Assembly: GCA_002425325.1 (NCBI GenBank)
Contig: DIMA01000018.1
Span: 8,259 to 72,258 of the forward strand
Direction: 5' to 3'
Length of the DNA: 64,000 bases
From: Bacillales bacterium UBA5578
GTDB lineage: Bacteria > Bacillota_I > Bacilli_A > RF39 > UBA660
Positions 4,363 to 46,968 of this stretch are shown here, one piece after another. The notes under the pieces are model-generated. The model made no database searches and had not been told where the DNA came from. It saw only the letters and a list, made by a program, of their open reading frames with translations. Numbering within the stretch: the stretch's first letter is position 1; each line of letters opens with the position of its first letter. The position numbers and the translations under genes were made by a program.

Positions 4363-4391
4363 AATTCCATACCCCCTTTATAGAATAGAGT

Positions 4392-4850: not shown

Positions 4851-6791
<1,941 letters not shown>

Positions 6792-7436: not shown

Positions 7437-7444
7437 ATATATAA

Positions 7445-7489: not shown

Positions 7490-7507
7490 ATTAAACATGG
7501 TGATTGT

Positions 7508-10440: not shown

Positions 10441-11151
10441 CTATTCACTTCCTTTTGCTTCAATTATAATATTTTCAAAATTATTATCTTGTTTAATATC
10501 AATTTCTTGTTTTTTAGACATACTTAGTATAGCTAAAAATGTTACAACTACATATTCCTTTGTAACTTCTTCAAATAATTCAACAAAGTTAACTTTCTTT
10601 TTTACTCTTAATATGTCTCTTATTTCCGTACTTCGTTTTCCTACTGAATACTCTTTATTTGTAACTTTAGTTGCTAAAGGTTTACTAGCCTCTTTATTTT
10701 GTAAGAAGTTATTTAATGCTGATACTAAATCGTCTAAAGATATACCTAAATCTAATTCTTGAGGTTCATTATAATCTTCTAATGTTGCTTCTCTTGTATA
10801 TATTTCTCTTCTAACTGCCTCTAATTCTTTAAAAGCATTTGTTGATTCTTTATAATTTTGATAATTAATTAATCTATTTATTAATTCTTCTCTTGGATCT
10901 TCAAATTCTTCATCTGTTTCTTCATGAGGTAATAATGTTCTAGATTTTAATTCTATTAAATCAGATGCCATTACTAAATATTCACTGGCAATATTTAAAT
11001 TTAATTCTTCCATTTTATTAATATAATCAAGATATTGTTTAGTTATTTTATCTATACTTATATCAAATATATCGATATCATCTTGTTTAATTAAGTGTAA
11101 TAGTAAATCTAGTGGTCCTTCAAATTCAGGTAATAAAACACTATATTCCAT
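10441..11151 (-). CDS. scpA: Segregation and condensation protein A.
   Basis: 'LPEFEGPLDLLLHLIKQDDIDIFDISI..ITKQYLDYI' matches the conserved ScpA N-terminus. Confidence 0.85.
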   Translation of the reverse strand: MEYSVLLPEFEGPLDLLLHLIKQDDIDIFDISIDKITKQYLDYINKMEELNLNIASEYLVMASDLIELKSRTLLPHEETDEEFEDPREELINRLINYQNYKESTNAFKELEAVRREIYTREATLEDYNEPQELDLGISLDDLVSALNNFLQNKEASKPLATKVTNKEYSVGKRSTEIRDILRVKKKVNFVELFEEVTKEYVVVTFLAILSMSKKQEIDIKQDNNFENIIIEAKGSE

Positions 11152-11299
11152 AAAATCAAACTCCTAATAATACAATAATTATATAATCTTTTATTTAAAT
11201 ATTCAATAAAAGATTAAGATAATAATTTTTTTCATCTTTTATTTTACACAAAATTAATGTATACTAAGTATAGTGTAGAATAGAATAGGAAGGGATTAT

Positions 11300-13550: not shown

Positions 13551-13653
13551 TGGATTAATATCCACTATTTTTTTGTAAATAAAATGTCTTGTTTTTAAAC
13601 AGTATTTAATGTATAATTATTTTAGTGTAAAAATATGTAAGATAGGTGATTAT

Positions 13654-16600: not shown

Positions 16601-16668
16601 CATCAAATACAAGTGATAGAGCTAACAGAATAGCTAATGGTACATATAAAAAATGTAAAAATGTTTAA
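13654..16668 (+). CDS. Very large (~1005 aa) Cys-rich secreted protein. Candidate adhesin or pilus-associated tip protein. The start was moved to the Met that follows the RBS.
   Basis: Signal peptide 'MIKKLLKTLIVTSVFLLILTMTFVPKVNAEV'. More than 40 Cys, many in CxxC or C..C pairs. No TM after the signal peptide. Confidence 0.5.
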   Translation: MIKKLLKTLIVTSVFLLILTMTFVPKVNAEVWSGGGNGNPFVPGSGGPSNCFREVFAFGVRITIVDINSGQRISGTKTIDYWQNVSTAKHGPDILKIEGFDYGHFGYHSKQETINGISTIAQYSWDDSNNKLLQDIGIMSTTNYAAKTYDATDTVYGNNCANDVRQELDIWFQNKEKTKIAKILTNAGVTGNNTEEIINKSKNYVIQIEPLMATGQTFACNSSQDGKRIGTPTQYSLHWDQVYNNYILKVSSYWYPYIFAKKSAGYTKVANLNLCDSVIADNVSRATIATDSCIAVSLYRIKDIVDDLCPTEYESNKTAILGNRTVRNEFMSRYNLPNDFDSSGNLGGLSDLALTLYGAPSNGDLACGTYSCNDNANAIYNKFFSSNPTKYNSLITQMYNKSGKKYNLLLTQFWQVANPSGPTCGKTESCLATKDINCDTASNKVLVISDSNEKRCWYTNEIGYNNQSSHIIPIKAKDTGCVDGVEDSCNTYRDTGCKIVCRQTVTFEFPGNVVNKVKAGMVFKWGTDNNKSTSLFGKMKVKMTCQVKSNGNDCRTHKRIHRANDKCYHKSSWKDSKSGFVCYGGWEDQEVDDLSSCKTPYPPGHAKAGECKEYNKKTQYRCKEIHSFDWATWVPAHGYLNSTVKLPDLSNLDTKVNIDYNLRYSVNGDLEKTLISGESQNNGATVTCYKGAKNNCKLGGLDISTHTRDVVGTYELKYTKKFNWYSSKLDGTLYDKSDYDSKTSSDSSKKSFYYYIGYSMPTSFKTHSGTYNDKLVATVSNVGFNDHFDSLLGGTGSFVYSCGLKIHNEIYDNECYDENGNLLPNAPAYCLPSNDPKGIDVVFREVQLINGSTDKHIRYAFPGAKANAFSSGKPRQKGANWAVLTNQEIYNVLNVNVYNNKPMYEIKLDTRVITNIRDINKKAKNKNKDPYSGMHDMSGNNKTLAGGFIGYKCLDGVNGKYCASSFLSELYNKYGLTGECIWTSNTSDRANRIANGTYKKCKNV

Positions 16669-17318: not shown

Positions 17319-18188
17319 ATGAATAATTTAGTTATTTCATCAAAAAAATTTATTACTAACAAAAATACAGTAACAATTATAGGTGTTGTTGTTATATTAG
17401 TTATTTTATATTTCTTATATAGCTCAACAGTAAGTAAAGCTACTCAAATGATTGAAGTTCCAGTAGCTGCAAAAACAATTAATCCACAAACACAAATAAC
17501 TGCAGATGATGTAACTTATATTGAAGTTGCTAATGCTGCAAAACCAGATAACGTTTTAACTAACGAAAATGATATCGTTGGTAAGTATTCTGGTGTAGGA
17601 TCAACTATTCCAGAAGGAAGTATGTTCTATGATCAAGCAGTTGTAGAAAAAGATGATCTACCTGGAAGTTGGTTAACTAGATTAGAAAAAAATTCATTAG
17701 GGGAATTAGATATTCCAATTTATATAAGTGTTGATACTACTACTACATATGGTAACTCAATTCAACCAGATATGTATGTTGATATCTATGTTAAAGCTGT
17801 TAATGAAAAAGAAGTATTAATGTTTGGTAAAATGTTAAGTAATATTAAAGTATTAGCTACAACTGATAGTGATGGTAAAGATGTATTTAGAAGTTCAGAA
17901 GATATTGGTACACCTGCTTTCTTAAATTTTGGTGTAAGTGCTGATAATTTTGATTTATTAAAGAAAGCAATCTACTTAGATGGTAAACAAATAGAATTAG
18001 TTGTTGTACCACATGGTGGTGCTGAAAAAGAAACAGGACTAGAAGTTAATGTATCAAGTGAATATTTAAGAGATTATATTCAAAATTTAACATTCGAATT
18101 ACCACAAAATGCTGAAGTAACAACTCCTGAAACTACTCCAGGAACAACACCAGAAGTTACTACTCCAGTTGTTACTCCAACAAATTAA
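17319..18188 (+). CDS. cpaB: Flp pilus assembly protein CpaB/RcpC-like (SAF-domain protein).
   Basis: N-terminal TM, then 'VPVAAKTINPQTQITADDV...' consistent with an SAF/CpaB domain. Thr/Pro-rich C-terminus. Position immediately upstream of tadA. Confidence 0.55.
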   Translation: MNNLVISSKKFITNKNTVTIIGVVVILVILYFLYSSTVSKATQMIEVPVAAKTINPQTQITADDVTYIEVANAAKPDNVLTNENDIVGKYSGVGSTIPEGSMFYDQAVVEKDDLPGSWLTRLEKNSLGELDIPIYISVDTTTTYGNSIQPDMYVDIYVKAVNEKEVLMFGKMLSNIKVLATTDSDGKDVFRSSEDIGTPAFLNFGVSADNFDLLKKAIYLDGKQIELVVVPHGGAEKETGLEVNVSSEYLRDYIQNLTFELPQNAEVTTPETTPGTTPEVTTPVVTPTN

Positions 18189-18210
18189 TAATTATAGAAA
18201 AAGGGGATAG

Positions 18211-19536
18211 ATGATGGATAATATATTTGATCAAATGGACTTTGGTCCATTACAACAATATTTAGATAATGATGATGTTACAGATATTTCATATAGTAAT
18301 GGTGGACAAGTTTGGTTAAAAACATTATCACACGGAATATTTAGAATTGAAAATCCAGCTATAAACAATGCGTTTATGGAAAGACTGGCATTTCAATGTT
18401 CGAATGTTGTAGGGCATAGCTTTAATGCAGCCCATCCTTTTCTAGATAGTGAAGACGCTGAGTTACGTATGAATTTTATACATGAATCAATTGCAAAAAA
18501 TGGTATTGCATGTGTTATTCGTAAAACTCCAGCTAAAATAAGATTAGAAAAAGATAAAATTATAGCAGATAAATATATTACAGAAGATATTCATGAATTA
18601 TTAATTCATTGTGTTCATGGACATTGTAATATAATTGTATGTGGAGAAACAGGTTCAGGTAAAACAGAGTTTGTTAAATATTTAGCTTCACATACTAAAG
18701 AAAATGAAAAAATAATTACTATCGAAGATACTCTAGAACTTCACTTGGATAGAATTTATCCACATAGAGATATAGTTGCAATGAAAACTAATAATGTTGC
18801 TTCATATTCAGATGTTTTAGTTTCTTGTATGAGACAAAATCCAAAATGGATATTACTTTCCGAAGTTCGTAGTGCTGAAGCAGTTACTGCAACACGTAAC
18901 TCAATATCATCAGGACATTATATTTTATCAACAATACATGCTGATAAAGCTTCTTCTATTCCTAACCGTATGTATGGTCTTATGGAAACAAGTCAAGATG
19001 TTGATCAATTTTTAAAAACTTTTTATAGGTACATTCAAATTGGTGTATATATTAGAGGTTACCAAGATAAGAAAACTCAAAGATTTGTTCGTGAAATAGC
19101 AGAAGTTTGTGAATTTTATGTTACAGAAGAAAATGAAGCAAAATATAATGTAATTTATAAGAAAACCCCTGATGGAAAAGTTGTTAAGAAAGAACCAACT
19201 CAATATCTATTAGATTATCTTGAAAGTCAAGGTGTTATATTACCATCTGGTTTAATTAAAGAGGAAACTATAGATACAGGTGAAGTTGCATTTGGTGTTG
19301 ATACAATTTCTTCATCAGGTGGTATGAGTATTGAAGATTTTAATAATGGTAGTGATATGAATAACGGAGTCGAAATCCCTAAGGATATTAATGAAGATTC
19401 CGTAAATAATCAAGTTGATACACAACAAGTTGTTCAAACTGAAAATAATAGTGTATCTTCAGGGCAGGAAGTTGTACAAACAGTTCAACCAGTACAACAA
19501 CCATCAGTTAATCCAACTGAACAAAATATTGGTTAA
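18211..19536 (+). CDS. tadA: TadA/CpaF-family secretion ATPase (T2SSE/VirB11 superfamily).
   Basis: Walker A 'CGETGSGKTEF'. 'ITIEDTLEL' corresponds to the Asp box. 'ILLSEVR' is the Walker B/His-box region. T2SSF-like genes lie directly downstream. Confidence 0.8.
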   Translation: MMDNIFDQMDFGPLQQYLDNDDVTDISYSNGGQVWLKTLSHGIFRIENPAINNAFMERLAFQCSNVVGHSFNAAHPFLDSEDAELRMNFIHESIAKNGIACVIRKTPAKIRLEKDKIIADKYITEDIHELLIHCVHGHCNIIVCGETGSGKTEFVKYLASHTKENEKIITIEDTLELHLDRIYPHRDIVAMKTNNVASYSDVLVSCMRQNPKWILLSEVRSAEAVTATRNSISSGHYILSTIHADKASSIPNRMYGLMETSQDVDQFLKTFYRYIQIGVYIRGYQDKKTQRFVREIAEVCEFYVTEENEAKYNVIYKKTPDGKVVKKEPTQYLLDYLESQGVILPSGLIKEETIDTGEVAFGVDTISSSGGMSIEDFNNGSDMNNGVEIPKDINEDSVNNQVDTQQVVQTENNSVSSGQEVVQTVQPVQQPSVNPTEQNIG

Positions 19537-28930: not shown

Positions 28931-31057
28931 ATGGATTTTATAATTAAAACTTTTAGAATTTTATTCTTTATGTTAGATGAAGTAGTATATGGTTTAATAG
29001 ATGATTTTTATGCTTTACTATTACAACTATGTAGAACTTCAATTTTTACACAAGATGTTATAAGTGAATTTGCAAAAAGAGTTTATGCACTTGTTGGTAT
29101 ATTTATGTTGTTTAAAGTTACACTATCAATAATTACATATATATTAAATCCAGATGATTTTAGTGATAAAGAAAAAGGTTTTACATCAATTATTAAACAT
29201 GTAATTTTATCTTTGGTTTTAGTAGTAATAACTCCATATATTTTTAGTGAAGCGTACGATTTACAAACTATAATATTAGAAGATAATACCATTATGAATG
29301 TAGTGTTTGGTACACCAGCTGAAGCTCATATGCCTAATACTAGTTATGTAGAGTCGGCTGGGAACAAGATACAATTTACGATTATGTATGCTTTTGCGCA
29401 ACCAAATATAGATGATTTCTATACGGATTCTAATACAAATTTGGCATCGTGTGCAACTACATATAAGAAAGATTCGAATGGTAACTACGAATTTAGAGCG
29501 TTACCAAAATATGATATAGAAGTTGCATCTGCTTGTGAAGCAGGAAAATCATGCTTTATATACGAATTAAATCCTGATTGTTTTGGATCATATAATGCAG
29601 ATAATGATACATATGAAAATGGACCTTTATATAATGCTTTTAACGAATACGAAAGTGAAGACTCAATTGCTGGTTCAACAGTTTATCAAAACTATGCTCA
29701 AGGTGTTGCTCAACAAAGTTTTAATATGTTCTTTAGAAAAGATGTAATTCTTGCAACTGTAGATACTGATGGAACTAAGCGATATATTATAGATTATAAA
29801 TTTGGTATTAGTACTGCTGTTGGTATAGGTGTATTATATTTATTATTATTATTCTGTATTGATATAGCAGTTCGTTCTGTTAAATTAGGTTTCTTACAAA
29901 TGATTGCTCCGATTCCAATTATTTCATATTGTGATCCAAAATCTAAAAAAGATGGAATGTTTAGTAAATGGTTAAAAATGTGTACATCGACATATTTAGA
30001 ATTATTCTTTAGATTATTTGCTTTATATTTTGGTATTTATGTTATTTCATTAATAGGAACATTTAAAGATGTAATCACTAATCAAAAAGTAGATGGTTTC
30101 TTTGTATCTGTATTTATGATAATAGGAATTTTGATTTTTGTTAAGCAATTACCAAAAATTCTTGAAGATAGTCTTGGAATTAAAGGTGCTGGTAACTTCC
30201 AATTAAATGCATTAAAAAAATTAGAAAACGATATGCTTGGTGGTAAATATGCTGCAGCAGGTATTAGAAGAGGTCGAAATGCTATAGGTGGTGCTGCAGT
30301 TGCAGGTATAACAGGTGCTGGATTTGCCGGAATGGGTAAGGCATTTACAGGCGGTTTGAAAGGCGATAAATTTAGTAAACAATTAATGGATGCTAGAGCT
30401 GCAAAGCATAATAGAAAAGCTAATCTTTTAAAAATGAAAGATGATGGCGTTAATGATTTTGATATTTTAGGAGAAAAATGGTATCAAGCTAGACATGGTG
30501 GTCTTACTAGAAGTGAACATGCAACAAATGTTTCGAATGCTATGAAATCAATTCAAGATGATTATGCTAATTATGAAAAAACAGCTGCTGGTGTAGATGC
30601 GATTGCTAAGGACTTTGATAAACGTAAAAAAGCTGCAGAAGCAGCAGGTGATTATGCTGAAGCTAAAAGATGGTCTACTGCATTTGATGCACGTGTAAAA
30701 GAAATTGCTAAAAATCATGGTAAAGTTGTAGGAAAAACTTCGATAGCTGATTTAAGTACAACAGTTGATGCAGATGGAAATATAATAGCTGGAACTGATT
30801 ATTATGGAACAGCTGTTGGTGGTACAGTTGAAGTTAATGCTGCATTAAGAAATACACAAGATCATATGGATTCTGTTGCTGCTGCAATGAATAGTCAAGG
30901 TTCTGATGTTGCAGGATATCAAGTTATTAATGCTAGCACAGCTTCAGATATTAAGGCTGTTAAGAATCAAGCACAAGCATCACAACAATCTATTGATACT
31001 AATGCAGCTAATAAGAAAAATGCTGACGTTGCTAAGTATGTTAATCAAAAGAAATAA
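28931..31057 (+). CDS. VirB6-like polytopic membrane protein (TcpH/Orf15/ConG analog) with a C-terminal Ala/Gly/Lys-rich soluble domain.
   Basis: 708 aa. Multiple TM helices in residues 1-420. Position immediately upstream of VirB3/VirB4 as in Tn916/ICEBs1. Hydrophilic C-terminal tail. Confidence 0.5.
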   Translation: MDFIIKTFRILFFMLDEVVYGLIDDFYALLLQLCRTSIFTQDVISEFAKRVYALVGIFMLFKVTLSIITYILNPDDFSDKEKGFTSIIKHVILSLVLVVITPYIFSEAYDLQTIILEDNTIMNVVFGTPAEAHMPNTSYVESAGNKIQFTIMYAFAQPNIDDFYTDSNTNLASCATTYKKDSNGNYEFRALPKYDIEVASACEAGKSCFIYELNPDCFGSYNADNDTYENGPLYNAFNEYESEDSIAGSTVYQNYAQGVAQQSFNMFFRKDVILATVDTDGTKRYIIDYKFGISTAVGIGVLYLLLLFCIDIAVRSVKLGFLQMIAPIPIISYCDPKSKKDGMFSKWLKMCTSTYLELFFRLFALYFGIYVISLIGTFKDVITNQKVDGFFVSVFMIIGILIFVKQLPKILEDSLGIKGAGNFQLNALKKLENDMLGGKYAAAGIRRGRNAIGGAAVAGITGAGFAGMGKAFTGGLKGDKFSKQLMDARAAKHNRKANLLKMKDDGVNDFDILGEKWYQARHGGLTRSEHATNVSNAMKSIQDDYANYEKTAAGVDAIAKDFDKRKKAAEAAGDYAEAKRWSTAFDARVKEIAKNHGKVVGKTSIADLSTTVDADGNIIAGTDYYGTAVGGTVEVNAALRNTQDHMDSVAAAMNSQGSDVAGYQVINASTASDIKAVKNQAQASQQSIDTNAANKKNADVAKYVNQKK

Positions 31058-31077: not shown

Positions 31078-31395
31078 ATGGGGAATTATTTAATACCAGC
31101 CAATTCAAAAAAGTCTATGTTAATATTTGGGCTGTTTAATCAATTAGATTTAATTATATTTGGTGTAGGAATTGGTATATCGTTATTACTATTAATGATA
31201 TTACCTGTAGATGAACTTGTTTGGGCGATACTTGCTATTGCCCCAGGTTGTATCTGCGCATTATTGGTGTTACCAATTCCTAATTATCATAATGTTAGAA
31301 CATTTATTAAATCAGCATATACATTTTATACAACTAGACAACAATTTGTTTGGAAAGGATGGTGCTATAAAGATTATGGCAACTCAAAAAAGTAA
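31078..31395 (+). CDS. VirB3-like small two-TM protein (ConD/PrgI analog).
   Basis: 105 aa. Two hydrophobic helices ('LIIFGVGIGISLLLLMILPV', 'WAILAIAPGCICALLVLPIP'). Directly precedes and overlaps the VirB4 start. Confidence 0.45.
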   Translation: MGNYLIPANSKKSMLIFGLFNQLDLIIFGVGIGISLLLLMILPVDELVWAILAIAPGCICALLVLPIPNYHNVRTFIKSAYTFYTTRQQFVWKGWCYKDYGNSKK

Positions 31396-31924
31396 ATATA
31401 CTAATGATGATATTCCTGTAAAGAGTATAACTAATGGTGTTATTCATCTAGAAGGTAGAGATAATATGAAAGTAACAGGTGTTAAGATAATGCCTAGAAA
31501 TATATTTATCTTAGATCCAGGAATGCAAAATGCAATAATAACTAATTTAAAAACAGTTTATAATGTTATAGATTATGAATTTTGGATAATTGTAGCTGAT
31601 AGACCAGTTGATATAAATGTATATCTATCTGAGTTAGAATTACTTTATAATAAAACATCAGATCCAGCTAGAAGAAAAATAATTACTGAAGATTTAAATA
31701 AAGCTAATATGTTTACAAGTAATAATGTAGTAGATACTGAATATTTCTTATTATTTAAAGAAAGAAATGATGATGTTATTGGAAAGAGAATTAGAAATTT
31801 AATTAATAATTTTGCTAATGCAGGTTTAACAGCTTTCCAAACATCTAATGATGATTTAAGAATGATTTTAGATAATTTCTTAAATGGTGGACAAACAACA
31901 GAATTTGGAACGGTGTTATCATGA
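31376..31924 (+). CDS. VirB4/TrsE-like ATPase, N-terminal fragment (183 aa) encoded as a separate ORF.
   Basis: 'DDIPVKSITNGVIHLEGRDNMKVTGVKIMPRNIFILDPGMQNAIITNLKTVYN' matches the conserved N-terminus of Gram-positive VirB4 (Orf16/TcpF type). It ends with a TGA that overlaps the next ATG (ATGA). Confidence 0.55.
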   Translation: MATQKSKYTNDDIPVKSITNGVIHLEGRDNMKVTGVKIMPRNIFILDPGMQNAIITNLKTVYNVIDYEFWIIVADRPVDINVYLSELELLYNKTSDPARRKIITEDLNKANMFTSNNVVDTEYFLLFKERNDDVIGKRIRNLINNFANAGLTAFQTSNDDLRMILDNFLNGGQTTEFGTVLS

Positions 31925-33708
31925 TAGATATTAAAAGTCAAATAGCTCCTAAGGGACTAGAATTTAAACCTGCTGAATTCGTAATAAGTGATAAACATGC
32001 TACTATATTAACTGTAATTAGTTATCCTAAATATATTTATCCAGGATATTTATCTTCATTAACATCAATGTCTGGAATTAAATTAGTTATTAAACATATA
32101 CCATTACCTTTTAGTACTGTTCAAAAAATGTTAAATAAAGAAATAGCAGATTTAAAGGTAAGATATCAAGAAGAAAATGATAGAACAATTCAAGAAAGAA
32201 TTAAACAAGATTATGCTTCATTGGAAGAATTTGTATCTGAATTAGCAGCTACACAAGCTAAAATCTATGATTTTCAAATGCATATAATGATAACAGCTAA
32301 TTCAGCTGATGAATTAATTGTTAAAAAATTACAAATTAAAAATTATTTAGAAGCAATGGAGATGAAAGCAATTCCATTAAGATTTGAACAAGATAAAGTT
32401 TTAAAATCTATGCTTCCTATTTATGAAAAACAAGATATAGAGGATAGAATTGGAACACCAATTCCAGCACCTACAATGGCTGCTATGTATCCATTTATAT
32501 TTGATAGTATAAAAGATCCAGGATTATCTACATTATTAGGTATAGATTTTTCTGGAGGAGTTATATTATTTAATCAATTTTTATATCAAATTAAGAAAGA
32601 ACATAATAGAAATAATGCTAATATGATTATATTAGGAACATCTGGTAGTGGTAAGTCTACTGCAGCTAAATTATTATTAAGAAATCATATTAGAAATAAT
32701 CATCAATTAATTGTTATTGACCCTGAAGGTGAATTAGAAGATATGTGCCTACAATATGGCGGTGACTTTATAAGCCTTGGTAAAGGTGGACAATTTGGTA
32801 TGATTAATCCTTTTGAAGTTGTTATGGATGTAGATGAAGAAGAAATTAAACAAGGTTTAGGATATACTACATTTACTAGAACAATTCAATCAATTAAAGC
32901 TTTCTTAAAATATTATGATCCTTCTGTTGAAGAGGATGTTCTAAATATGTTTAGTGAAGTTGCTCAAGAAACATATAGAAGATTTAATATTAATTTTGAT
33001 ACCAATTTTATGAACTTGACAAGTGCAGATTATCCTACATTTAAGGATGTATATGCTACTGTTAAAGGTAAATTATTATCAATGCCAGAAAGAACTCAAG
33101 AAAGAGATATTTTAGAAAGATTAGAATTAAAAATTAGACCATTAGTAAAAGAATTAAAATATTATTTTGATGGTCATACTACTATTTCAGCTAAAAGTGA
33201 TTTTATAGTATTTAATATAAGAGAGTTAATGAATTCTGATGAAAATATCAGAAATGCTTTATTCTTCAATGTGTTAAAATATGCTTGGAGTTTAACTTTA
33301 GATGTTAACAAAAATACTATATTAGAAGTAGATGAAGCTCACGTATTATTAAGTAATCAAAACGTTTTAGGTGCTGATTTCTTAGCTCAAATTCAAAGAC
33401 GTGCAAGAAAATATAATACAGGTACAATTATTATTACTCAACAACCAACAGATTTCTGTGACCCAGCTGTTATTACTCAAGGTAAGGCAATATTTGATAA
33501 TACATCTTACTATTTAGTAATGGGATTAAAGAAACAAGCTGCAACAGATTTAGCTAGATTAATAGATTTAAATGAATCTGAGGTTGAAAGTATTAAAAAA
33601 TATGGTCAAGGGGAAGCTTTATTTATATGTGGTAGTAGAAGAATGAGAATTAACGTTGTGGTTACAGAAGAAGAATTAGATTCATTTGGCCGTGGCGGAG
33701 GTTTATAA
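31921..33708 (+). CDS. VirB4/TrsE-like conjugative ATPase, C-terminal fragment (595 aa) carrying the P-loop NTPase domain.
   Basis: Walker A 'ILGTSGSGKST'. Walker B 'NTILEVDEAHVLL'. 'TIIITQQPTDF' is the VirB4 motif region. Confidence 0.8.
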   Translation: MIDIKSQIAPKGLEFKPAEFVISDKHATILTVISYPKYIYPGYLSSLTSMSGIKLVIKHIPLPFSTVQKMLNKEIADLKVRYQEENDRTIQERIKQDYASLEEFVSELAATQAKIYDFQMHIMITANSADELIVKKLQIKNYLEAMEMKAIPLRFEQDKVLKSMLPIYEKQDIEDRIGTPIPAPTMAAMYPFIFDSIKDPGLSTLLGIDFSGGVILFNQFLYQIKKEHNRNNANMIILGTSGSGKSTAAKLLLRNHIRNNHQLIVIDPEGELEDMCLQYGGDFISLGKGGQFGMINPFEVVMDVDEEEIKQGLGYTTFTRTIQSIKAFLKYYDPSVEEDVLNMFSEVAQETYRRFNINFDTNFMNLTSADYPTFKDVYATVKGKLLSMPERTQERDILERLELKIRPLVKELKYYFDGHTTISAKSDFIVFNIRELMNSDENIRNALFFNVLKYAWSLTLDVNKNTILEVDEAHVLLSNQNVLGADFLAQIQRRARKYNTGTIIITQQPTDFCDPAVITQGKAIFDNTSYYLVMGLKKQAATDLARLIDLNESEVESIKKYGQGEALFICGSRRMRINVVVTEEELDSFGRGGGL

Positions 33709-33727: not shown

Positions 33728-36052
33728 ATGAATAATCAAAGTATACCTAAAATAAGTAATTCAGGAAATGGTGGGGCAAAAACCCCATCATTATCTGCTA
33801 ATACGGGTGAAAAAAATAATACTAAATTAGCTAATATAAACAAACAAAAAAGTTCGACTCCATCTGGTAAAAGAGCTGAAGACTATAAAAAAGGTTTATC
33901 TAATAATAAAGGTGATGCAGCAAAGCAAAGATTAAATAACTTAAAAGACAATATGAATAATCTTAAAAAGTTTGCTGCAAAAGAGGGAATAAAAAAAGCT
34001 GCAGCTGCGTATGGAGTACCAGAACCAGTTGTTGGTAATCTTCTTAATTCAAAATTGGGAGATAAACTTATTGATGAAGCATTGAAAAAGGGAGATCCTG
34101 CTGCTGCATTGGAACCATTAAAAAAAGTTGGAAAAGGTGCAATAGATGCTTCTAAAAAAATAAATGATGCTTTTTCTCCTGAATCGGAAAAATCTTCTGA
34201 TCAAAAAAGTGATGAGAGAGAAGCAGAAAAAGTTAATAATGGTGAAATTACTTTTGAGTTTTCAGGTAAAACAATAAAATATTTAGCAATTATTGCTCCA
34301 GTATGTTTTGCTTTATTAATGTTTGTTATGATTGTAGTTGTAGCCATATCTGATGATAAAGCATCATCTATGATTTTAGCAGGGTTATCTTCAGATGAAA
34401 GAGGAGCTATATTAGATCAATTTGGTAATGGATCTGGTGAAATTGCATATAATACCGTTGGTAAAGGTACTAATGAATATCCTAAAAGTTATTATGAAAG
34501 ATTAGAAAGTTTAGGAAATGTTTATTCATCAGATGGAAAATGTAAGGGTGCAGACTGTATGTCTCGTGCTGAATTCTTATATTATCTAAAAATTGCTGAC
34601 ATTAGTTTAAGATATCAAAATAAATACGGTGTAAAATTAGATTGGTTCTTGATAGCAGCAACTAATTTATACCAAGATAATACTAATGAAGAAACAATGG
34701 AAAAAAATACTGGTGGATATGATAAAGATACAGTAGAAAATTTTGATACACCTTCATTATTAGATTGGGATAATGATTTTAAAAATATGGATGGTTATAC
34801 ATATTTAGATCCTAATGATTCAAAATATGATTTAAATATTTTAGCTAAAAATATGGTAACTAAAAAAACATATCAAAGTTGTACTAAAAATGGTACAGTT
34901 ACAAAGAATCAAGAAGATACTGATGTAGAAGATATGTATTTTACTCCAACAGGTGGTAAGAAATTAATTTGTGCTGCTGGAGAAACTTATAGCATATACA
35001 GTACATATACTTTAGATAAAGATAAGTATGATGAATTTATGCTTGAATATATTGATAAAAAAATGTTAACTCCAAGTACAGGAGGAGCATCAGGTAGTGG
35101 CTGTTATTATTGGCCTTTAAAAAATGGTGCAGGAACTATTACTTCAAAATTTGGTAATAGAAAAGCACCAACTCAAGGAGCATCTACTAATCATAAAGGT
35201 TTAGATATTGGTGTTCCAGAAGGTACTGAAATAGTATCAACTATTCCAGGAACTGTTATTCGTGCAGGTGCTGTTGATGGCTTTGGATATGCTGTATATA
35301 TTGATCATGGTAATGATATGGTTTCAAAATATGGTCATATTAGAGCTGATGGTATAAAGGTAAAAGTAGGAGATAAAGTATCTCAAGGTCAAGTTATTGC
35401 TTTATCAGGAAATACTGGTATTTCAACAGGTCCACATTTACATTTTCAATTAGAGATGAGTGGTAATCCAGTTGATCCTTTAGATTATGTAAGTCAAGAC
35501 AATCCTGCTCCTACAAGTTGTAGAACAGTTTCAGGAAATTCATTATCAAATGCTTTTGTTAAATTAGCATTAGCGCAAATCAATGATCCTGAAGGAGTTA
35601 ATGGTAAAAAGTATTGGCAATTTATGGGATATAATAGTAGAGTTCCATGGTGTGCTGCATTTGTTTCATGGGTAGTTCAAAATACTAACTTTAATGGTCA
35701 AAGAATGGCTAGTATAGTTAATTATAGATCTGCAAGTGTAAATGAATGGATGAAATATTTTAATGGTGGAACAGGTAAAATTAAATTTTATTATAATGAT
35801 AATTGTTCAAAATATGCTGGTAAAAATGGAAGTGGAAAATATATTCCAAAAGAAGGAGATATGATTTTCTTTGATTGGGATCAAACATGGAATGGTAATT
35901 TCCCACCTTCAGGACCAGATCATATAGGAATTGTGCAACATACAAGAAATGGTGTTATTACTACAATAGAAGGTAATACAAGTAATAAAGTAGCTGAAAG
36001 AACTTATAACTTAAATAGTTGTAAAGTTGTAGGTTTTGGTTCTTGGTATTAG
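33728..36052 (+). CDS. Membrane-anchored bifunctional peptidoglycan hydrolase with an M23 (LytM) endopeptidase domain and a C-terminal CHAP domain (VirB1/TcpG/CwlT analog).
   Basis: M23: 'HKGLDIGVPEGTEIVS...GNTGISTGPHLHFQ'. CHAP: 'VPWCAAFVSWVV...DHIGIVQHT'. Lys-rich N-terminal region plus a TM helix 'YLAIIAPVCFALLMFVMIVVVAI'. Confidence 0.8.
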   Translation: MNNQSIPKISNSGNGGAKTPSLSANTGEKNNTKLANINKQKSSTPSGKRAEDYKKGLSNNKGDAAKQRLNNLKDNMNNLKKFAAKEGIKKAAAAYGVPEPVVGNLLNSKLGDKLIDEALKKGDPAAALEPLKKVGKGAIDASKKINDAFSPESEKSSDQKSDEREAEKVNNGEITFEFSGKTIKYLAIIAPVCFALLMFVMIVVVAISDDKASSMILAGLSSDERGAILDQFGNGSGEIAYNTVGKGTNEYPKSYYERLESLGNVYSSDGKCKGADCMSRAEFLYYLKIADISLRYQNKYGVKLDWFLIAATNLYQDNTNEETMEKNTGGYDKDTVENFDTPSLLDWDNDFKNMDGYTYLDPNDSKYDLNILAKNMVTKKTYQSCTKNGTVTKNQEDTDVEDMYFTPTGGKKLICAAGETYSIYSTYTLDKDKYDEFMLEYIDKKMLTPSTGGASGSGCYYWPLKNGAGTITSKFGNRKAPTQGASTNHKGLDIGVPEGTEIVSTIPGTVIRAGAVDGFGYAVYIDHGNDMVSKYGHIRADGIKVKVGDKVSQGQVIALSGNTGISTGPHLHFQLEMSGNPVDPLDYVSQDNPAPTSCRTVSGNSLSNAFVKLALAQINDPEGVNGKKYWQFMGYNSRVPWCAAFVSWVVQNTNFNGQRMASIVNYRSASVNEWMKYFNGGTGKIKFYYNDNCSKYAGKNGSGKYIPKEGDMIFFDWDQTWNGNFPPSGPDHIGIVQHTRNGVITTIEGNTSNKVAERTYNLNSCKVVGFGSWY

Positions 36053-36061: not shown

Positions 36062-36733
36062 ATGAAGAAAAATATTTTATTATTAGGATTATTAATCTTA
36101 TTATCTGGTTGCACAACAAAATATAATTTAACTTTTTCAGGTGATAAAATAAAAGAAAATATTGATATTAATATAGATAATGCAGAAATAAAACTAGGTG
36201 AGTCATATGTGCCTGGTATTGAATCTGATAATCGTATAAATAATATATTAAAAGAAGATCAATATCCATTATTTAATAATGAAAAAGTAAAATATGACAA
36301 AAAAGTTACTAGAAAAGGTTCTTATACAAATGTAAAATTAAGTCATAGTTATACATTTGATGAATATTTAAGTTCAAATGCATATTTAACATGTTTTGAA
36401 AATAAAAAAATGTCTAAAAATAGAAATTCATATTCTTTATCATTAAATGGTAATTTCTATTGTTTATATAGTGATGATATAGAAATAAATATTAAAACAG
36501 ATAGAGAAGTATTAAAACATAATGCTGATAAAGTAAAAGGAAATACATATACATGGATTATTAATTCAGAAAATGTAAAAGATGCTAATATATATTTCCA
36601 AATGTCTACAAGATACAAATCTACAAATACTATACTAATTGTAGTAGCAGTAGTTGTTGGAGTAGTATTATTAGGCGGAGGATTTATTATATATAGTAAA
36701 CTAAAAAATAGAGACAGCATTAATGAAATATAG
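36062..36733 (+). CDS. Lipoprotein with an additional C-terminal TM anchor (paralog A).
   Basis: Lipobox 'LLSGC'. C-terminal 'ILIVVAVVVGVVLLGGGFIIY' followed by a basic tail. Homologous to the ORF at 38117. Confidence 0.45.
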   Translation: MKKNILLLGLLILLSGCTTKYNLTFSGDKIKENIDINIDNAEIKLGESYVPGIESDNRINNILKEDQYPLFNNEKVKYDKKVTRKGSYTNVKLSHSYTFDEYLSSNAYLTCFENKKMSKNRNSYSLSLNGNFYCLYSDDIEINIKTDREVLKHNADKVKGNTYTWIINSENVKDANIYFQMSTRYKSTNTILIVVAVVVGVVLLGGGFIIYSKLKNRDSINEI

Positions 36734-36746
36734 TAGAGGTGTTAGT

Positions 36747-38108
36747 ATGAAAAAAGAATTAAAAAGAATATTATTTATTGTTTTAACAGTATCATTATTA
36801 ATACCTTTTACTGTTTTTGGATATGAATTTGAAAATAAAGAAAGAGAATCTAATGCTAAAAGAGTAAAAGAAGAAATATACGATTTATATAATTTATATA
36901 AATATATAATTGGTAATAATCCAGAAACTGAATACGGTGTTATTGGTTATAATGGTCAATGTTCACAAGTAACAGTAAATGGAAAAACAGTTAATATAGA
37001 TGATTATATTGCTGGTGTTATTAAACAAGAAATGGGTGGAAATAACTTACAAGCCTTAAAAGCTCAAGCAATTGCAGCTAGATCTTATTTATTAAGTACA
37101 AATTCTGGTTCAACTTGTAAAGTAGTTAATGGTCAAAGTTATCAAGCTTATACTGAAGAAAAAAATAGGAACTCTATATATTATAGAGCAGCAAAAGAAA
37201 CTTCAGGAATGGTTGTTAGTAGAAATGGTAGAATAGCTATGACTCAATATCAATCACATCCTGCAGGTAAATGGTGTAAAGAAGATGCTAGTGGTTGGCA
37301 TATTACTTTCCAAAGATTTTCAGACGATTCTAGTTCAACATGGGTTTGGAATGGACCTAATAAAGAAACTGTTAGAAGAGTAGCTGGAGACGGTTCATTA
37401 TATGGAACAGAAATGAACTACAATAATGGACATCACTTTGGAATGAGTCAAACAGTAGCTATGTATTTAGCTAAAGCACAAGGATATTCATATGAAAAAT
37501 TAATCAAAACATTCTATGGTGAAGATGTAATGAAATTATCTGATGGAGTGTATGATGGTAATTTAAGTTATGTGGATTCTGATTTTGGAAAAATATACTA
37601 TTATAATCAATTGGATTATGCTAAATACTATTATTCTGCAAATCCATCAAGTTCAAATACATATGGAGGTACAATAGCAAGTCATGGTTGTGGACCTACA
37701 TCTATGGCAATTGTAGCTTCTAGTATGCTTAACAAAAATATTTCACCAGTTGAAACAACTCAAAAAACTTGTGCAGCTGGAGGATGTACTTCTGGTGGAT
37801 CATATAATAATACATTAGGTCAAGTATTGAATCAACAATACGGATTACATGTTAAAATGTCTGGTAATAATCAAGAAGTATTAAATGCACTTGGATCTGG
37901 TAAATCATTAGTTATAGTTTTAATGGGACCAGGAACATTTACTACTGGAGGACACTATATTGTATTAACTGGTGTAAATAGACAAGGTCAAGTATCTGTT
38001 GCAGATCCAGCTAGTAGAAAAAGAACTGAAACTAAATGGTTCTCATTTAATACAATAATAGAACAAAGAAAAAAATATGCTAATTATACAATAATTACTA
38101 AAAGTTAG
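36747..38108 (+). CDS. Secreted cell-wall hydrolase with an N-terminal SpoIID/LytB-like domain and a C-terminal papain-like (C39-like/CHAP-like) peptidase domain.
   Basis: 'QALKAQAIAARSYLL' matches the SpoIID signature (EALKAQAVAARTY). C-terminal 'GCGPTSMAIV...GGHYIVLTG' gives a Cys/His dyad. Signal peptide after the Met at 36747. Confidence 0.55.
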   Translation: MKKELKRILFIVLTVSLLIPFTVFGYEFENKERESNAKRVKEEIYDLYNLYKYIIGNNPETEYGVIGYNGQCSQVTVNGKTVNIDDYIAGVIKQEMGGNNLQALKAQAIAARSYLLSTNSGSTCKVVNGQSYQAYTEEKNRNSIYYRAAKETSGMVVSRNGRIAMTQYQSHPAGKWCKEDASGWHITFQRFSDDSSSTWVWNGPNKETVRRVAGDGSLYGTEMNYNNGHHFGMSQTVAMYLAKAQGYSYEKLIKTFYGEDVMKLSDGVYDGNLSYVDSDFGKIYYYNQLDYAKYYYSANPSSSNTYGGTIASHGCGPTSMAIVASSMLNKNISPVETTQKTCAAGGCTSGGSYNNTLGQVLNQQYGLHVKMSGNNQEVLNALGSGKSLVIVLMGPGTFTTGGHYIVLTGVNRQGQVSVADPASRKRTETKWFSFNTIIEQRKKYANYTIITKS

Positions 38109-38811: not shown

Positions 38812-41010
38812 ATGAAATTAAAATTTAGAGCAGAAAAAAAAGACGTAATAATATTTTTAATATTTTCATTAATATTATTTCTTTTGATATGTTTAGCCGT
38901 ATCTAATATTGGTTCATTTTTATCAGAAGAAGGTACATTTTCAGGACTTAATATAGTTCCTGCATTAACAACATATTTACCTTTAACATTGTTATTATTT
39001 ATTGTTTGTATTATAGCAATGTTTATGAGTGTTCAATCTTGGTTTATTGAACGTGAAGAAGGTGTAGGATTCCAAATTGGATCTAAAAGAGAAAAAAATT
39101 ATTCACACTGGGAAAAAGACTCAGAAATGAAAAAGGGTCAAGATATAGTTGCAGTTGATCCATTAGCACCAAAAGCTAATGCTGCTGGTATACCAATTAT
39201 TATGACACCTAAAAAAGTATGGGTTGATAATGGTGGATATCATAACTTAGTAATAGGTTCTACTGGTGCTGGTAAAACTCAAACAACTGTATTACCAATG
39301 GTTAACTTATTAGCAAAAAATGATGAATCTATGATTATTACCGACCCAAAAGGTGAAATCTATGAAGATACATCTAATTATTTAAGAAGTTTAGGATATA
39401 ATATAGTTTTATTAAACTTCCGTGATCCTCAACAAGGTAATAGTTGGAATCCAATGTATTTACCATATTCATTATATAAAGATAATAAAATAGATAAATC
39501 AATTGAGTTACTTGAAGACTTAGCTGCAAATATATTAAAAGATCCTTCTGCTAAAGGACAAGACCCATTCTGGGAAAATACTTCAGCCGATTATTTTGCA
39601 GGTTTATCATTTGCATTATTTGAAGATGCTGATGAATCACAAGTAAACTTAAATAGTATTAACTTAATGACAACAGTTGGAGAAGAAAAATTAGCTAATA
39701 CAACATATGTAAAAGAATATTTTACATTTAAAGATCCAGCTAGTACAGCTTATATTAAAGCATCTTCTACACTGATGGCACCAAACGAAACAAAAGGATC
39801 TATCTTATCAGTATTTAAACAAAGAGTTCAATTATTTGCATCTCGTACTAATTTATCTGAGATGTTAGCAAATAATGACTTTGATATGAGAGATATTGGT
39901 CGTAAAAAAACAGCAGTATTTATTGTAATTCAAGATGAAAAAACAACATATCATACTTTAGTTACAATATTCTTAAAACAATGTTATGAAACTTTAATTT
40001 CAGTAGCACAAGAATGTGGAGGAAAATTACCACATAGAACAAACTTTATTCTTGATGAGTTTGCTAACATGCCACCATTAAAGGATGTTACAACAATGGT
40101 TACTGCTGCTCGTTCAAGAAATATAAGATTTACATTTATCATTCAAAACTTTGCTCAATTAAATGAAGTTTATGGTAAAGAAAATGGTGAAACAATTAAA
40201 GGTAACTGTGGTAACATAGTTTACTTAATAAGTACTGAACTTACAGCGCTTGAAGAAATAAGTAAGATGTGTGGTGAGGTTAAATCTAAAGAAAAAGAAA
40301 AAACTTCATCTACACCATTAGTTACTGTAAGTGATTTACAAAGAATGAAACAATGGGAAACAATTATACTACGTATAAGAACAATGCCATTTAAAACAAC
40401 ATTAACTCCAAACTTTAAAATGCAATGGGGACATAATTTCCCTAAAGCTGATTATCCAATGAGAGAAGAAAAAGGAGTTAAAACATTTGATTTAAAAACA
40501 TATGTTGAGAAAAAAAGAGATGAAAAGATTAATAACTTAATTGGTGGTGCTAATAGTAACTCTCCATTTGGTGGTGGAAATTCTCCATTTGGAGCCCAAG
40601 GTAGTTCACCATTTGGTGGTGGAAGACAAAATAGTCCATTTGGAGGAGGAATGCCTTCAACACCATTTGGAAATGGAACACCAAGTAGTCCATTCTCATC
40701 AAAACCTCAACAAACTGCTCCAAGTAGTCCATTTGGTACTCCAAAAAATGAGGACTCAGGAATTAATATGGAAAGTTTAGTTAATAGAATCAATGCTAAA
40801 ATTGAAGAATTGGAAGCTGAAGATAAAAAGAATAATGAAGTTAAACAAGATAAAGTTATTGAACCATCACCTTTTATGAGTGATAAATTAGTTTCTAATA
40901 CTAAACCTTCAACATCAAAACCAGTTGAATCATTTGTACCTGATACAAATACTCATAAATCAGGAGTTACTGATGATCAATTCTTTGATGATTTCTTTGG
41001 AGATGATTAA
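38812..41010 (+). CDS. VirD4/TraG-family type IV coupling protein with two N-terminal TM helices and a C-terminal disordered tail containing 'SPFG' repeats.
   Basis: Walker A 'VIGSTGAGKTQTTVLPM'. 'NFILDEFANMPPL' is the TraG/VirD4 Walker B region. The tail has six or more S/T-P-F-G(G) repeats. Confidence 0.75.
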   Translation: MKLKFRAEKKDVIIFLIFSLILFLLICLAVSNIGSFLSEEGTFSGLNIVPALTTYLPLTLLLFIVCIIAMFMSVQSWFIEREEGVGFQIGSKREKNYSHWEKDSEMKKGQDIVAVDPLAPKANAAGIPIIMTPKKVWVDNGGYHNLVIGSTGAGKTQTTVLPMVNLLAKNDESMIITDPKGEIYEDTSNYLRSLGYNIVLLNFRDPQQGNSWNPMYLPYSLYKDNKIDKSIELLEDLAANILKDPSAKGQDPFWENTSADYFAGLSFALFEDADESQVNLNSINLMTTVGEEKLANTTYVKEYFTFKDPASTAYIKASSTLMAPNETKGSILSVFKQRVQLFASRTNLSEMLANNDFDMRDIGRKKTAVFIVIQDEKTTYHTLVTIFLKQCYETLISVAQECGGKLPHRTNFILDEFANMPPLKDVTTMVTAARSRNIRFTFIIQNFAQLNEVYGKENGETIKGNCGNIVYLISTELTALEEISKMCGEVKSKEKEKTSSTPLVTVSDLQRMKQWETIILRIRTMPFKTTLTPNFKMQWGHNFPKADYPMREEKGVKTFDLKTYVEKKRDEKINNLIGGANSNSPFGGGNSPFGAQGSSPFGGGRQNSPFGGGMPSTPFGNGTPSSPFSSKPQQTAPSSPFGTPKNEDSGINMESLVNRINAKIEELEAEDKKNNEVKQDKVIEPSPFMSDKLVSNTKPSTSKPVESFVPDTNTHKSGVTDDQFFDDFFGDD

Positions 41011-45964: not shown

Positions 45965-45965
45965 G

Positions 45966-45993
45966 TTTAAAGATAATTCTTTAAACTTTTTTG
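45966..45993 (+). terminator. Rho-independent terminator after smpB.
   Basis: gtttaaag-ataattc-tttaaac followed by tttttt. Confidence 0.55.
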
Positions 45994-46084
45994 TTAAATA
46001 AAATAATTATAGTGTATTGCAAATACTTTTAAAATAATATATACTTATATTGTAAAACATAATACGCGAAAGGAAGTGTGCTTA

Positions 46085-46351
46085 ATGCAAATTACATCTG
46101 TAAATGTCAAAAAATTTGACAAAGAAGACTCAAAAATGAAAGGAATCGCTTCAGTAATACTTGATGATTGTTTTGTAATTCGTGATATCAGAATTATAGA
46201 AAAAGAAGAAGGTTTATTTATTGCAATGCCTAGTAGAAGAAAAGGTGATGGAGAGTATCATGATGTAGCTCATCCAATTAATCAAGAAACTAGACAAATG
46301 TTTGAAGAAACTATATTAAAAGCATATGAAACTGCTGATTCAGAAGAATAA
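46085..46351 (+). CDS. spoVG: Sporulation/septation regulator SpoVG. The start was moved to the 'MQITSV' Met that follows the RBS.
   Basis: 'MQITSVNVKKFDKED...GIASVILDDCFVIRDIRIIE..GLFIAMPSRR' is the hallmark SpoVG sequence. Confidence 0.85.
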   Translation: MQITSVNVKKFDKEDSKMKGIASVILDDCFVIRDIRIIEKEEGLFIAMPSRRKGDGEYHDVAHPINQETRQMFEETILKAYETADSEE

Positions 46352-46379
46352 AAGTCACAATTGTGACTTTTTTATTTTA
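46352..46379 (+). terminator. Rho-independent terminator after spoVG.
   Basis: aagtcacaattgtgactt (9-bp palindromic stem) followed by ttttattttat. Confidence 0.65.
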
Positions 46380-46409
46380 TATATTCATATAATGTAATAG
46401 GAGGTATAT

Positions 46410-46685
46410 ATGGAAAATGATATACAATTTAATCATAGTATTACATTAAATGAAAGAAAAAATCTATTAGTAACAGGTGTAAAGAAAATAGATCATTTTG
46501 ATACTAATGAATTTTTGATTGAAACTAATATGGGATATTTATATATAAAAGGATCTGAATTAGAATTAATAAAATTAGATACATTTAAAGGTAATGTAAC
46601 TATAAAAGGTATAGTAAATAGTATGGTGTATAATGATAAAGATAAAGTAAAAGAAGATGGAATTATATCGAGATTATTTAAATGA
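46410..46685 (+). CDS. yabP: Sporulation protein YabP.
   Basis: 'HSITLNERKNLLVTGVKKIDHFDTNEFLIETNMGYLYIKGSELELIKLD' follows the YabP pattern. It is followed by a YabQ-like gene and divIC, as in Bacillus. Confidence 0.7.
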   Translation: MENDIQFNHSITLNERKNLLVTGVKKIDHFDTNEFLIETNMGYLYIKGSELELIKLDTFKGNVTIKGIVNSMVYNDKDKVKEDGIISRLFK

Positions 46686-46945
46686 TAGAATTAGCTTATC
46701 AATTTAAAATAATAATTTATTCCATATTATATTCACTAGTTTTTACATACTCCTTTATATTATGTAAAAATTATTTATGTGTTAATAATTATGTATTTAA
46801 AACAATTAATACAATTACATTTTACTTATTCTTTTCTATAATGTACTTTATAGGATTAGAAATAGTATGTAATGGTATTTTACACTTTTATTCTATTTTA
46901 ACTATATTTTTTGTAGGTTATATTGCTACAAAGTATAATAAATGA
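46682..46945 (+). CDS. yabQ: Spore cortex biosynthesis membrane protein YabQ-like.
   Basis: 87-aa three-TM protein overlapping the yabP stop. Conserved synteny yabP-yabQ-divIC. Confidence 0.5.
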   Translation: MIELAYQFKIIIYSILYSLVFTYSFILCKNYLCVNNYVFKTINTITFYLFFSIMYFIGLEIVCNGILHFYSILTIFFVGYIATKYNK

Positions 46946-46968
46946 TAAAATGTGTTTAAGGTGATACT

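Follow-up and report, generated by a model that had tools for sequence, protein, structure and literature searches.

We examined the organization of the VirB4 ATPase genes in a 64,000-nucleotide (nt) stretch of the genome of Bacillales bacterium UBA5578 (GTDB lineage Bacteria; Bacillota_I; Bacilli_A; RF39; UBA660; GenBank assembly GCA_002425325.1, contig DIMA01000018.1, positions 8,259 to 72,258 of the forward strand), hereafter called the window. Three overlapping open reading frames (ORFs) on the + strand occupy positions 31078 to 33708 of the window. The first (31078 to 31395) encodes a small membrane protein of 105 amino acids (aa) resembling VirB3, PrgI, and TcpE; its last 20 nt (31376 to 31395) overlap the next gene. 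The second (31376 to 31924) encodes 182 aa from the ATG at 31376 and is assigned here as the VirB4 N-subunit, a separate soluble polypeptide that represents the first half of the N-terminal domain of VirB4 (in the mechanical ORF list, this ORF begins further upstream, at 31211). The third (31921 to 33708) encodes 595 aa and is assigned as the VirB4 ATPase subunit, which carries the second half of the N-terminal domain followed by the ATPase domain. The two VirB4 genes share the stop/start overlap ATGA (31921 to 31924, + strand), read directly in the sequence GTG TTA TCA TGA TAG, in which the ATG at 31921 to 31923 overlaps the TGA at 31922 to 31924. A Shine-Dalgarno (SD)-like GGTG (31912 to 31915, + strand) lies 5 nt upstream of the ATPase start, within conserved G-T-V codons of the N-subunit. 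No homopolymer is present at the junction in the sequence read. A preliminary description of this stretch, made from the sequence alone, had given the same three sets of ORF coordinates, the 20-nt and TGA/ATG overlaps, and the lack of a homopolymer, all of which agree with the sequence; its combined length of 778 aa is corrected here to 777 aa (182 + 595). Translation with genetic code 4 (TGA read as tryptophan) was considered as a way of joining the halves and was rejected, given that the next codon after the TGA is the stop TAG and the two VirB4 ORFs stay apart.

The best-scoring profile for all three ORFs was NF045975 (NCBIfam, 894 positions), which represents the VirB3-VirB4 fusion protein of Mycoplasma integrative and conjugative elements (ICEs). 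The three proteins matched this profile in co-linear order and without rearrangement: the 105-aa protein at profile positions 2 to 79 (E = 0.021, 12.5 bits), the 182-aa protein at positions 99 to 277 (E = 2.2e-13, 48.9 bits), and the 595-aa protein at positions 294 to 891 (E = 4.6e-100, 335.7 bits). The earlier identification of the upstream ORF as VirB3-like and of the 182-aa piece as the VirB4 N-terminal region was therefore correct.

Residues 201 to 593 of the 595-aa protein (32521 to 33708, + strand) form a C-terminal RecA-like ATPase domain and match the crystallized C-terminal domain (CTD) of Thermoanaerobacter pseudethanolicus VirB4 (4AG5; phmmer, E = 9.1e-56). Both catalytic motifs are intact: Walker A (GTSGSGKS) at residues 239 to 246 (32635 to 32658) and Walker B (ILEVDEAH) at residues 467 to 474, which aligns with VLVVDEAW of 4AG5 and places the D471-E472 pair at 33331 to 33336. 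Residues 1 to 200 (31921 to 32520, + strand), upstream of the 4AG5-matching region, align between the N-piece and Walker A of P0253, an 800-aa homologue in which both parts are fused. Because the two domains of R388 VirB4 (TrwK) span residues 15 to 400 and 400 to 823 (PMC9259494), the 182-aa protein and residues 1 to ~200 of the 595-aa protein would together constitute the N-terminal domain, cut in midcourse.

The 105-aa protein contains two hydrophobic segments at approximately residues 23 to 45 and 46 to 66 (Kyte-Doolittle values up to 2.7), and it fits the ~100-aa, two-transmembrane-segment protein found immediately upstream of virB4. Its Pfam matches were weak and below gathering threshold (TcpE, E = 0.013, 16.4 of 29.9 bits; PrgI, E = 0.074, 14.0 of 27 bits), and its relatives carry precomputed PF26592 (PrgI_like) annotations. 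No transmembrane segment was found in either the 182-aa or the 595-aa protein.

An AlphaFold2 model of the 182-aa protein (pLDDT 77.8, pTM 0.67) was compared with the Protein Data Bank (PDB) using Foldseek; the top 14 matches were all R388 TrwK/VirB4 chains, the best being 7O42_A (probability 1.00, E = 3.6e-3, TM-score 0.46, 144 columns). We regard this fold match as corroborating the sequence evidence; it does not count as independent proof. At the family level, precomputed PF26593 annotations are present on the 99%-identical homologues P0001 and P0002 and on most N-piece homologues below ~86% identity; several homologues at 87 to 91% identity have no PF26593 recorded. The match is at E = 1e-5 or better in one N-piece relative (P0069) and weak in another (P0048).

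These data bear on a different explanation for the 182-aa protein, namely, that it is an unrelated accessory protein that happens to be encoded where the VirB4 N terminus would be, the 595-aa protein being a complete, short VirB4. Consistent with this idea, the N-piece had no match above threshold in the Pfam set lacking the PF26593 and PF26592 models, and its profile produced only chance matches to PDB sequences. VirB4 of T. pseudethanolicus, with its CTD at residues 205 to 588 (PMC4643968), is also only ~590 aa and therefore falls in the size class of the 595-aa subunit. Against it, the N-piece matches the N-terminal region of a VirB4 profile co-linearly with the C-piece, its structural matches are all to TrwK/VirB4, its counterpart on the Bacillus thuringiensis plasmid pBMB67 weakly matches positions 13 to 165 of Pfam TraC_F_IV, and Pfam curators named its family TraC-like. 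Furthermore, a single alignment to the 800-aa homologue runs across the junction, as described below. We consider an unrelated accessory protein improbable.

When the N- and C-pieces were concatenated and compared with the single-chain homologue P0253, BLASTP returned one high-scoring segment pair across the junction (27.6% identity over 783 columns, E = 5e-89), and the alignment to a second homologue (P0142, 39% identity) also spanned it. In a multiple alignment, the junction falls within a poorly conserved, length-variable linker, in which the fused protein and the split proteins of Bacillales have 30 to 45 extra residues; the proteins of the window family and those of plasmids pBMB67 and pEYLC1.2 are cut at an identical alignment position. 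Given this location, alignment to full-length VirB4 homologues, a check proposed in the preliminary description, indicates that no residues are missing at the junction.

To determine how widely the two-gene arrangement is distributed, we searched a collection of 5.8 billion proteins with the 182-aa sequence and obtained at least 7947 homologue clusters. The best 120 of these (74 to 99% identity) were all stand-alone proteins of 167 to 207 aa. In a library of representatives at 50% identity, stand-alone, full-length homologues of ~180 to 235 aa extended down to 28 to 33% identity, and just one of the best 150 matches was a long fused protein. A separate scan of one genome per species, with a narrow alignment (A2) as the query, yielded at least 583 matching stretches; among the best 80, nearly all came from metagenome-assembled genomes (MAGs) named uncultured Bacilli, Tenericutes, Mollicutes, or Acholeplasma sp. 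CAG:878. Some loci (for example, L007, L013, L023, and L060) lie in MAGs labelled Muribaculaceae, Bacteroidaceae, Actinomycetes, or Vescimonas; for loci of a low-GC lineage, transfer is a less likely explanation of such labels than misbinned or mislabelled public records.

We then surveyed the junction in 82 distinct loci, including the window, and found two separate VirB4 ORFs in all 82, the same split that had been proposed for inspection in orthologous loci. Eleven junction types were observed. The most frequent was TAATG (43 loci), followed by ATGA (19), overlaps of 10 to 14 nt (11), and a 1-nt spacer (6), with one locus each having TGATG, a 5-nt spacer, and an in-frame TAA-ATG. The gap between the halves ranged from −14 to +5 nt across all loci; relative to the first ORF, the second was found in each of the three frames (66, 15, and 1 loci), and 81 of the 82 loci had an SD-like tetramer within the 18 nt preceding the second start. 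The overlap between the VirB3-like gene and the N-piece gene is likewise kept in relatives (14 to 53 nt); the VirB3-like, N-piece, and C-piece genes follow one another tightly and overlap.

This survey decides against a sequencing or assembly indel that broke a single virB4 ORF of ~780 aa. Such an error would account for ORFs in adjacent frames whose total of 777 aa equals the length of a single-chain VirB4. However, the two-ORF state is present in 81 other independently assembled loci and in the finished plasmid sequences considered next, the junction has no homopolymer, and the nearest relatives (L004 and L005, 89% identity) share both the ATGA junction and the 182- and 595-aa lengths. The probability that the split is an artifact is, in our estimation, negligible.

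The same architecture occurs in known plasmids. A tblastn search of PLSDB with the N-piece detected 36 Bacillus plasmids, all typed as conjugative (31.5% identity, E = 5e-11). In pBMB67, the gene order is MobP3 relaxase, CD1115-family VirD4, hypothetical protein, TrbL, PrgI-family protein, 227-aa hypothetical protein, and 630-aa DUF87 protein, with a 3-nt spacer between the genes for the last two and a SAF-domain protein and an ATPase further on. The 630-aa protein aligns with the window ATPase over its full length (29% identity, E = 2e-85). Exiguobacterium plasmid pEYLC1.2 has the same gene order with a 2-nt spacer, and Brevibacillus chromosomes encode stand-alone N-piece homologues of 202 to 246 aa that carry precomputed PF26593.

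More distant versions are found on plasmids of the pXO2 and pCP13 types. In pBT9727, genes for a 104-aa DUF5592 protein, a 222-aa hypothetical protein, and a 645-aa ATPase follow one another, with a 14-nt spacer before the ATPase gene. The corresponding genes of pAW63 are CDS11 (105 aa), CDS10 (223 aa, annotated "ATPase involved in DNA repair"), and CDS9 (645 aa, VirB4) (PMC1196294); pAW63 and pBT9727 have been reviewed as effective conjugative plasmids (PMC9673590). Clostridium perfringens pCP13 has the order pcpB6, pcpI (DUF5592), pcpJ (214 aa, hypothetical), topA, and pcpB4 (632 aa) (PMC8941779). In its sequence (L087, NC_003042, positions 7112 to 11827), the topoisomerase gene topA lies between pcpJ and pcpB4; therefore, the VirB4 halves need not adjoin. 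PcpB4 and the window ATPase can be aligned over their entire lengths (24% identity, E = 1e-47). PcpJ shows homology to the 222-aa protein of pBT9727 (E = 3e-9). It gave no hit in the Pfam set lacking the PF26593 model, but it carries precomputed PF26593, as do all of the best 120 PcpJ homologues listed, which places them in the family of the window N-piece relatives. Profile-profile comparison of the PcpJ and window N-piece families gave a probability of 92.8% (E = 4e-7). Distant homology between the window N-piece and the small proteins of pBT9727 and pCP13 is thus indicated by good evidence, although not beyond doubt. Throughout the plasmids inspected, the RefSeq annotation of the N-piece is "hypothetical protein."

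Programmed −1 ribosomal frameshifting, or bypass of the stop codon at the ATGA, could in principle yield a functional fused VirB4 from two ORFs, and in the window the downstream ORF does lie in the −1 frame behind a tight overlap. A slippery heptamer (X XXY YYZ) was looked for before the stop and none was found. The relative frame is not conserved among the 82 loci: TAATG junctions, with the second ORF in the +1 frame (43 loci), predominate over ATGA junctions, with it in the −1 frame (19 loci), one locus has both ORFs in the same frame behind a stop codon, and others are spaced. On plasmids the halves are separated by 3 nt (pBMB67), by 14 nt (pBT9727), or by the whole of topA (pCP13). Every version has its own start codon, preceded by an SD-like motif in all but one of the 82 loci. 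Because these geometries are too varied to fit any single recoding mechanism, we reject recoding as a very remote prospect.

Ratios of nonsynonymous to synonymous substitution (dN/dS), computed pairwise against the window at dS values of ~0.75 to 1.1, were 0.07 to 0.14 (N-piece), 0.05 to 0.10 (ATPase piece), and ~0.2 (VirB3-like gene). Both VirB4 halves are under strong purifying selection. Recent pseudogenization would predict otherwise: the 182-aa ORF would be a decaying remnant, and the 595-aa ORF would either work alone or also be dead. In mobile elements, an ATPase gene that is split is often a pseudogene, and no relaxase was recognized in the surrounding cluster. Nevertheless, selection on the N-piece is similar to that on the ATPase piece, the N-piece is full length in at least 583 genome matches and down to 28% identity, Walker A and B are intact, and the same layout is present in plasmids for which conjugation has been demonstrated experimentally. 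We therefore regard recent decay as scarcely credible. Conservation of the split with varied junctions and frames, together with purifying selection, excludes an assembly error, any single programmed-frameshift mechanism, and a recent pseudogene alike. The preliminary description had left three options. The comparative data refute two of them, a sequencing error and a −1 frameshift, and strongly support the two-gene state of the third, a genuine VirB4 of two translationally coupled polypeptides.

Together, these results show that the VirB4 split is genuine and old, as judged from sequence comparison, and that the two-gene layout is conserved in hundreds of gut bacterial species as well as in known conjugative plasmids of Bacillus and Clostridium. 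With high confidence, we interpret VirB4 at this locus as an evolutionarily fixed two-gene protein; most likely, its halves would be made from coupled cistrons and rebuilt into one unit by noncovalent association. Overlapping or abutting stop and start codons and an internal SD-like element, the hallmarks of translationally coupled operon genes, are both present at the junction. Translational coupling of the VirB4 cistrons is plausible because the stop and start codons overlap or abut and GGTG lies 5 nt upstream of the ATPase start; the three overlapping cistrons (VirB3-like, N, and C) would then be produced together. The N-terminal domain would be completed by noncovalent docking of the 182-aa subunit onto the ~200 N-terminal residues of the ATPase subunit. 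The corresponding domain of R388 VirB4 has VirB3 wrapped around it, contacts the VirB8 tails, and provides the interface through which VirB4 dimerizes (PMC9259494).

Several observations weigh against this interpretation. All three window proteins miss the curated NF045975 cutoff of 590 bits, and the 595-aa piece also scores below the curated cutoffs of TIGR00929 (75.8 versus 643.1 bits) and NF045971 (164.8 versus 325 bits), such that neither VirB4 piece reaches any curated NCBIfam VirB4 cutoff. The Foldseek E values for the N-piece are marginal even for the best chain, and the output did not give the aligned TrwK residues. As single sequences, the pBT9727 protein and PcpJ reached only 17 to 19% probability against the N-piece profile (hhalign). 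Physical association of the 182-aa and 595-aa proteins, like their translational coupling, is a proposal. The two-gene state may have arisen by fission of a single gene, once in the distant past or repeatedly, or the genes may have been fused elsewhere.

Canonical single-chain VirB4 proteins (R388 TrwK, Agrobacterium tumefaciens VirB4, and the Gram-positive CD1110-family, TcpF, and PrgJ-type ATPases of ~750 to 820 aa) resemble the window proteins in that a RecA-like ATPase domain bearing Walker A and B motifs comes after an N-terminal domain of ~380 to 400 aa. They also share the gene neighborhood, which includes an upstream VirB3-like gene, a VirB6-like gene, a hydrolase gene, and virD4. In contrast to these proteins, the window chain is cut ~180 residues into the N-terminal domain and encoded by two genes; the single-polypeptide arrangement of the VirB4 family was found in none of the 82 loci. 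The Mycoplasma ICE ATPase (the Mbov_0397 family, NF045975) combines VirB3-like, N-piece, and ATPase segments in one polypeptide, whereas the window has three; its host lineage is related to the loci named uncultured Bacilli, Tenericutes, Mollicutes, and Acholeplasma sp. CAG:878.

Fusions of VirB3 to VirB4, for example in Campylobacter- and Helicobacter-type systems, illustrate that the boundaries between these modules are evolutionarily plastic and that VirB3 and VirB4 work with or without a covalent link. Such a fusion is the opposite event to the split described here and affects a different boundary. Evidently, the segments can be distributed over one chain (the Mycoplasma ICE profile), two (the 800-aa VirB4 represented by P0253, presumably accompanied by a separate VirB3-like protein), or three (the window family).

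Among plasmid systems, the pBMB67-type plasmids and pEYLC1.2 are the closest annotated relatives of both window halves. They share the order TrbL, PrgI-like, N, and C, and they encode a SAF-domain protein and ATPase (pBMB67) or an RcpC/CpaB-family protein (pEYLC1.2) similar to those of the window. They differ in being plasmid borne, in having a MobP3 relaxase gene adjoining virD4, in their 2- to 3-nt spacers, and in longer tails at the junction. The pCP13 and pXO2-like plasmids (pAW63 and pBT9727) likewise have a membrane protein of ~100 aa, a protein of 214 to 223 aa, an ATPase of 632 to 645 aa, and a CD1115-family VirD4, and pBT9727 also has a T2SSE-family ATPase. These proteins are very divergent from those of the window (~16 to 24% identity); the plasmids carry MobP relaxases, whereas none was recognized in the window cluster, and their VirB4 genes do not overlap as those of the window do. 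In the literature, the small protein of these plasmids is described as hypothetical or as an "ATPase involved in DNA repair," not as a part of VirB4.

We found no description of a split VirB4 in the literature searched, including searches for PF26593, PF26592, and DUF5592. The stand-alone N-piece family does already exist as Pfam PF26593 ("TraC-like"), as does that of the neighboring small protein (PF26592, "PrgI_like"), and the window adds a member to an existing, poorly annotated family. The initial impression that a split VirB4 is unusual holds against textbook and model systems. It does not hold within this Firmicutes T4SS (type IV secretion system) clade, in which the split is the rule, as seen in the genome and protein searches and in pBMB67, pBT9727/pAW63, and pCP13. 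As a separate observation, the crystallized 4AG5 VirB4 CTD may itself come from a split system with an unnoticed N-piece gene upstream.

The VirB4 genes belong to a cluster of ~30 kb on the + strand (11300 to 41010). The cluster head comprises a SAF-domain (RcpC/CpaB-like) protein and a T2SSE-family (VirB11/CpaF-like) ATPase (17319 to 19536; Pfam SAF and T2SSE, the latter E = 7.5e-27), a pairing that recurs in pBMB67 and pBT9727. Directly upstream of the VirB3-like gene lies a gene for a 708-aa VirB6/TrbL-like polytopic membrane protein (28931 to 31057; Pfam TrbL weak, E = 0.004; relatives with weak PF19597, TrbL_4). Downstream of the ATPase gene, in the position equivalent to VirB1, is a gene for a cell-wall hydrolase with M23 peptidase and CHAP domains (33728 to 36052; Pfam Peptidase_M23, E = 6e-29; CHAP, E = 3e-8), followed at 38812 to 41010 by a gene for a VirD4-type coupling protein of the CD1115 family (NF045973, 297 bits against a cutoff of 250; Pfam T4SS-DNA_transf, E = 8e-57). 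Thus, the VirB4 genes have a VirB3-like gene directly before them and VirB6-like, hydrolase, and VirD4 genes nearby, and this neighborhood is kept in relatives. Two Tad-sized membrane proteins are also encoded in the cluster, which has two cell-wall hydrolases in all. The second of these (36723 to 38108) has SpoIID and C39-like peptidase domains, and in relatives the domain composition of the two hydrolases varies (CHAP only, M23 only, or C39 only; L001, L088, and L170). A 1019-aa ORF in the cluster (13609 to 16668) has no Pfam or NCBIfam match and is hypervariable although the rest of the cluster is conserved, with a detectable homologue in only 4 of 32 related loci (26 to 32% identity, versus ~40 to 85% for its neighbors); a role as a surface or adhesin-type specificity protein is possible.

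The cluster is flanked by scpB/scpA (9880 to 11151) on one side and by rmuC, rnr, and smpB on the other (region 9880 to 45964). Two further relatives at the species level (L088 and L172) also have rmuC after virD4. In a metagenome scan anchored on the T2SSE ATPase, 32 loci had enough upstream sequence, and in 13 of them scpAB immediately preceded the first gene of the cluster; a metagenome scan with that 525-aa first gene as the query returned no relatives. Among the functions expected of a self-transmissible ICE or plasmid, a VirD4-type coupling protein is encoded, whereas no relaxase, integrase, or replication domain was recognized in the scanned ORFs of 11300 to 41010, where small ORFs or very divergent relaxases could escape recognition. 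A blastn search of plasmid and phage collections with the 2.6-kb region also returned no match. Because the same scpAB and rmuC flanks recur across species and relaxase, integrase, and replication proteins were not recognized, gene content and context favor vertical inheritance of a system fixed in the chromosome over an ordinary ICE.

Elsewhere in the window, a small island on the − strand (1745 to 6749, or 1745 to 7436 with the adjoining tRNA gene) encodes a 410-aa protein of unknown function, a Mob_Pre (MobV-type) relaxase (3019 to 4362), and a large serine recombinase (4851 to 6749), and adjoins tRNA-Leu(CAA) (7350 to 7436). This island is probably an integrated mobilizable element and could be a client of the neighboring T4SS. 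Directly after smpB, ~1 kb of low-GC sequence (45965 to 46968) contains no ORF of at least 100 aa; neither ARAGORN nor Rfam (gathering threshold) detected a tmRNA there or elsewhere in the window.

The fixed setting of the cluster suggests a further, tentative idea, which we consider rather unlikely: the split VirB4 may serve a vertically inherited, no longer mobile T4SS/Tad-like core organelle of a reduced-genome gut lineage. Such an organelle might mobilize small resident elements in trans, the MobV and serine-recombinase island at 1745 to 6749 among them, or mediate DNA exchange or uptake, and the free N-subunit could be an adaptor with a dose of its own. The N-terminal domain of R388 VirB4 uses one surface for two partners: VirB3 in the central subunits and VirB8 tails in the outer subunits. 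If the idea is correct, a detachable N-half could let one ATPase build alternative assemblies.

The significance of the two-gene VirB4 is moderate, since the architecture is already present in databases and in studied plasmids; its value lies chiefly in annotation and in structural work on Gram-positive T4SS. To our knowledge, VirB4 is the one component common to all type IV secretion and conjugation systems and a marker for detecting and classifying them. In a large clade of Firmicutes, comprising gut lineages with hundreds of species and the toxin and virulence plasmid families of pCP13 and pXO2/pAW63, this marker is encoded by two genes. In annotation pipelines, the N-half is called "hypothetical" and the ATPase may be marked as a truncated protein, and detection of VirB4 by length or score cutoff gives split systems scores that are too low. 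The natural cut marks a tolerated domain boundary that is useful for dissecting how the N-terminal domain couples the ATPase to VirB3, VirB6, and VirB8-like partners, and structural and genetic studies of Gram-positive T4SS should take in the small subunit.

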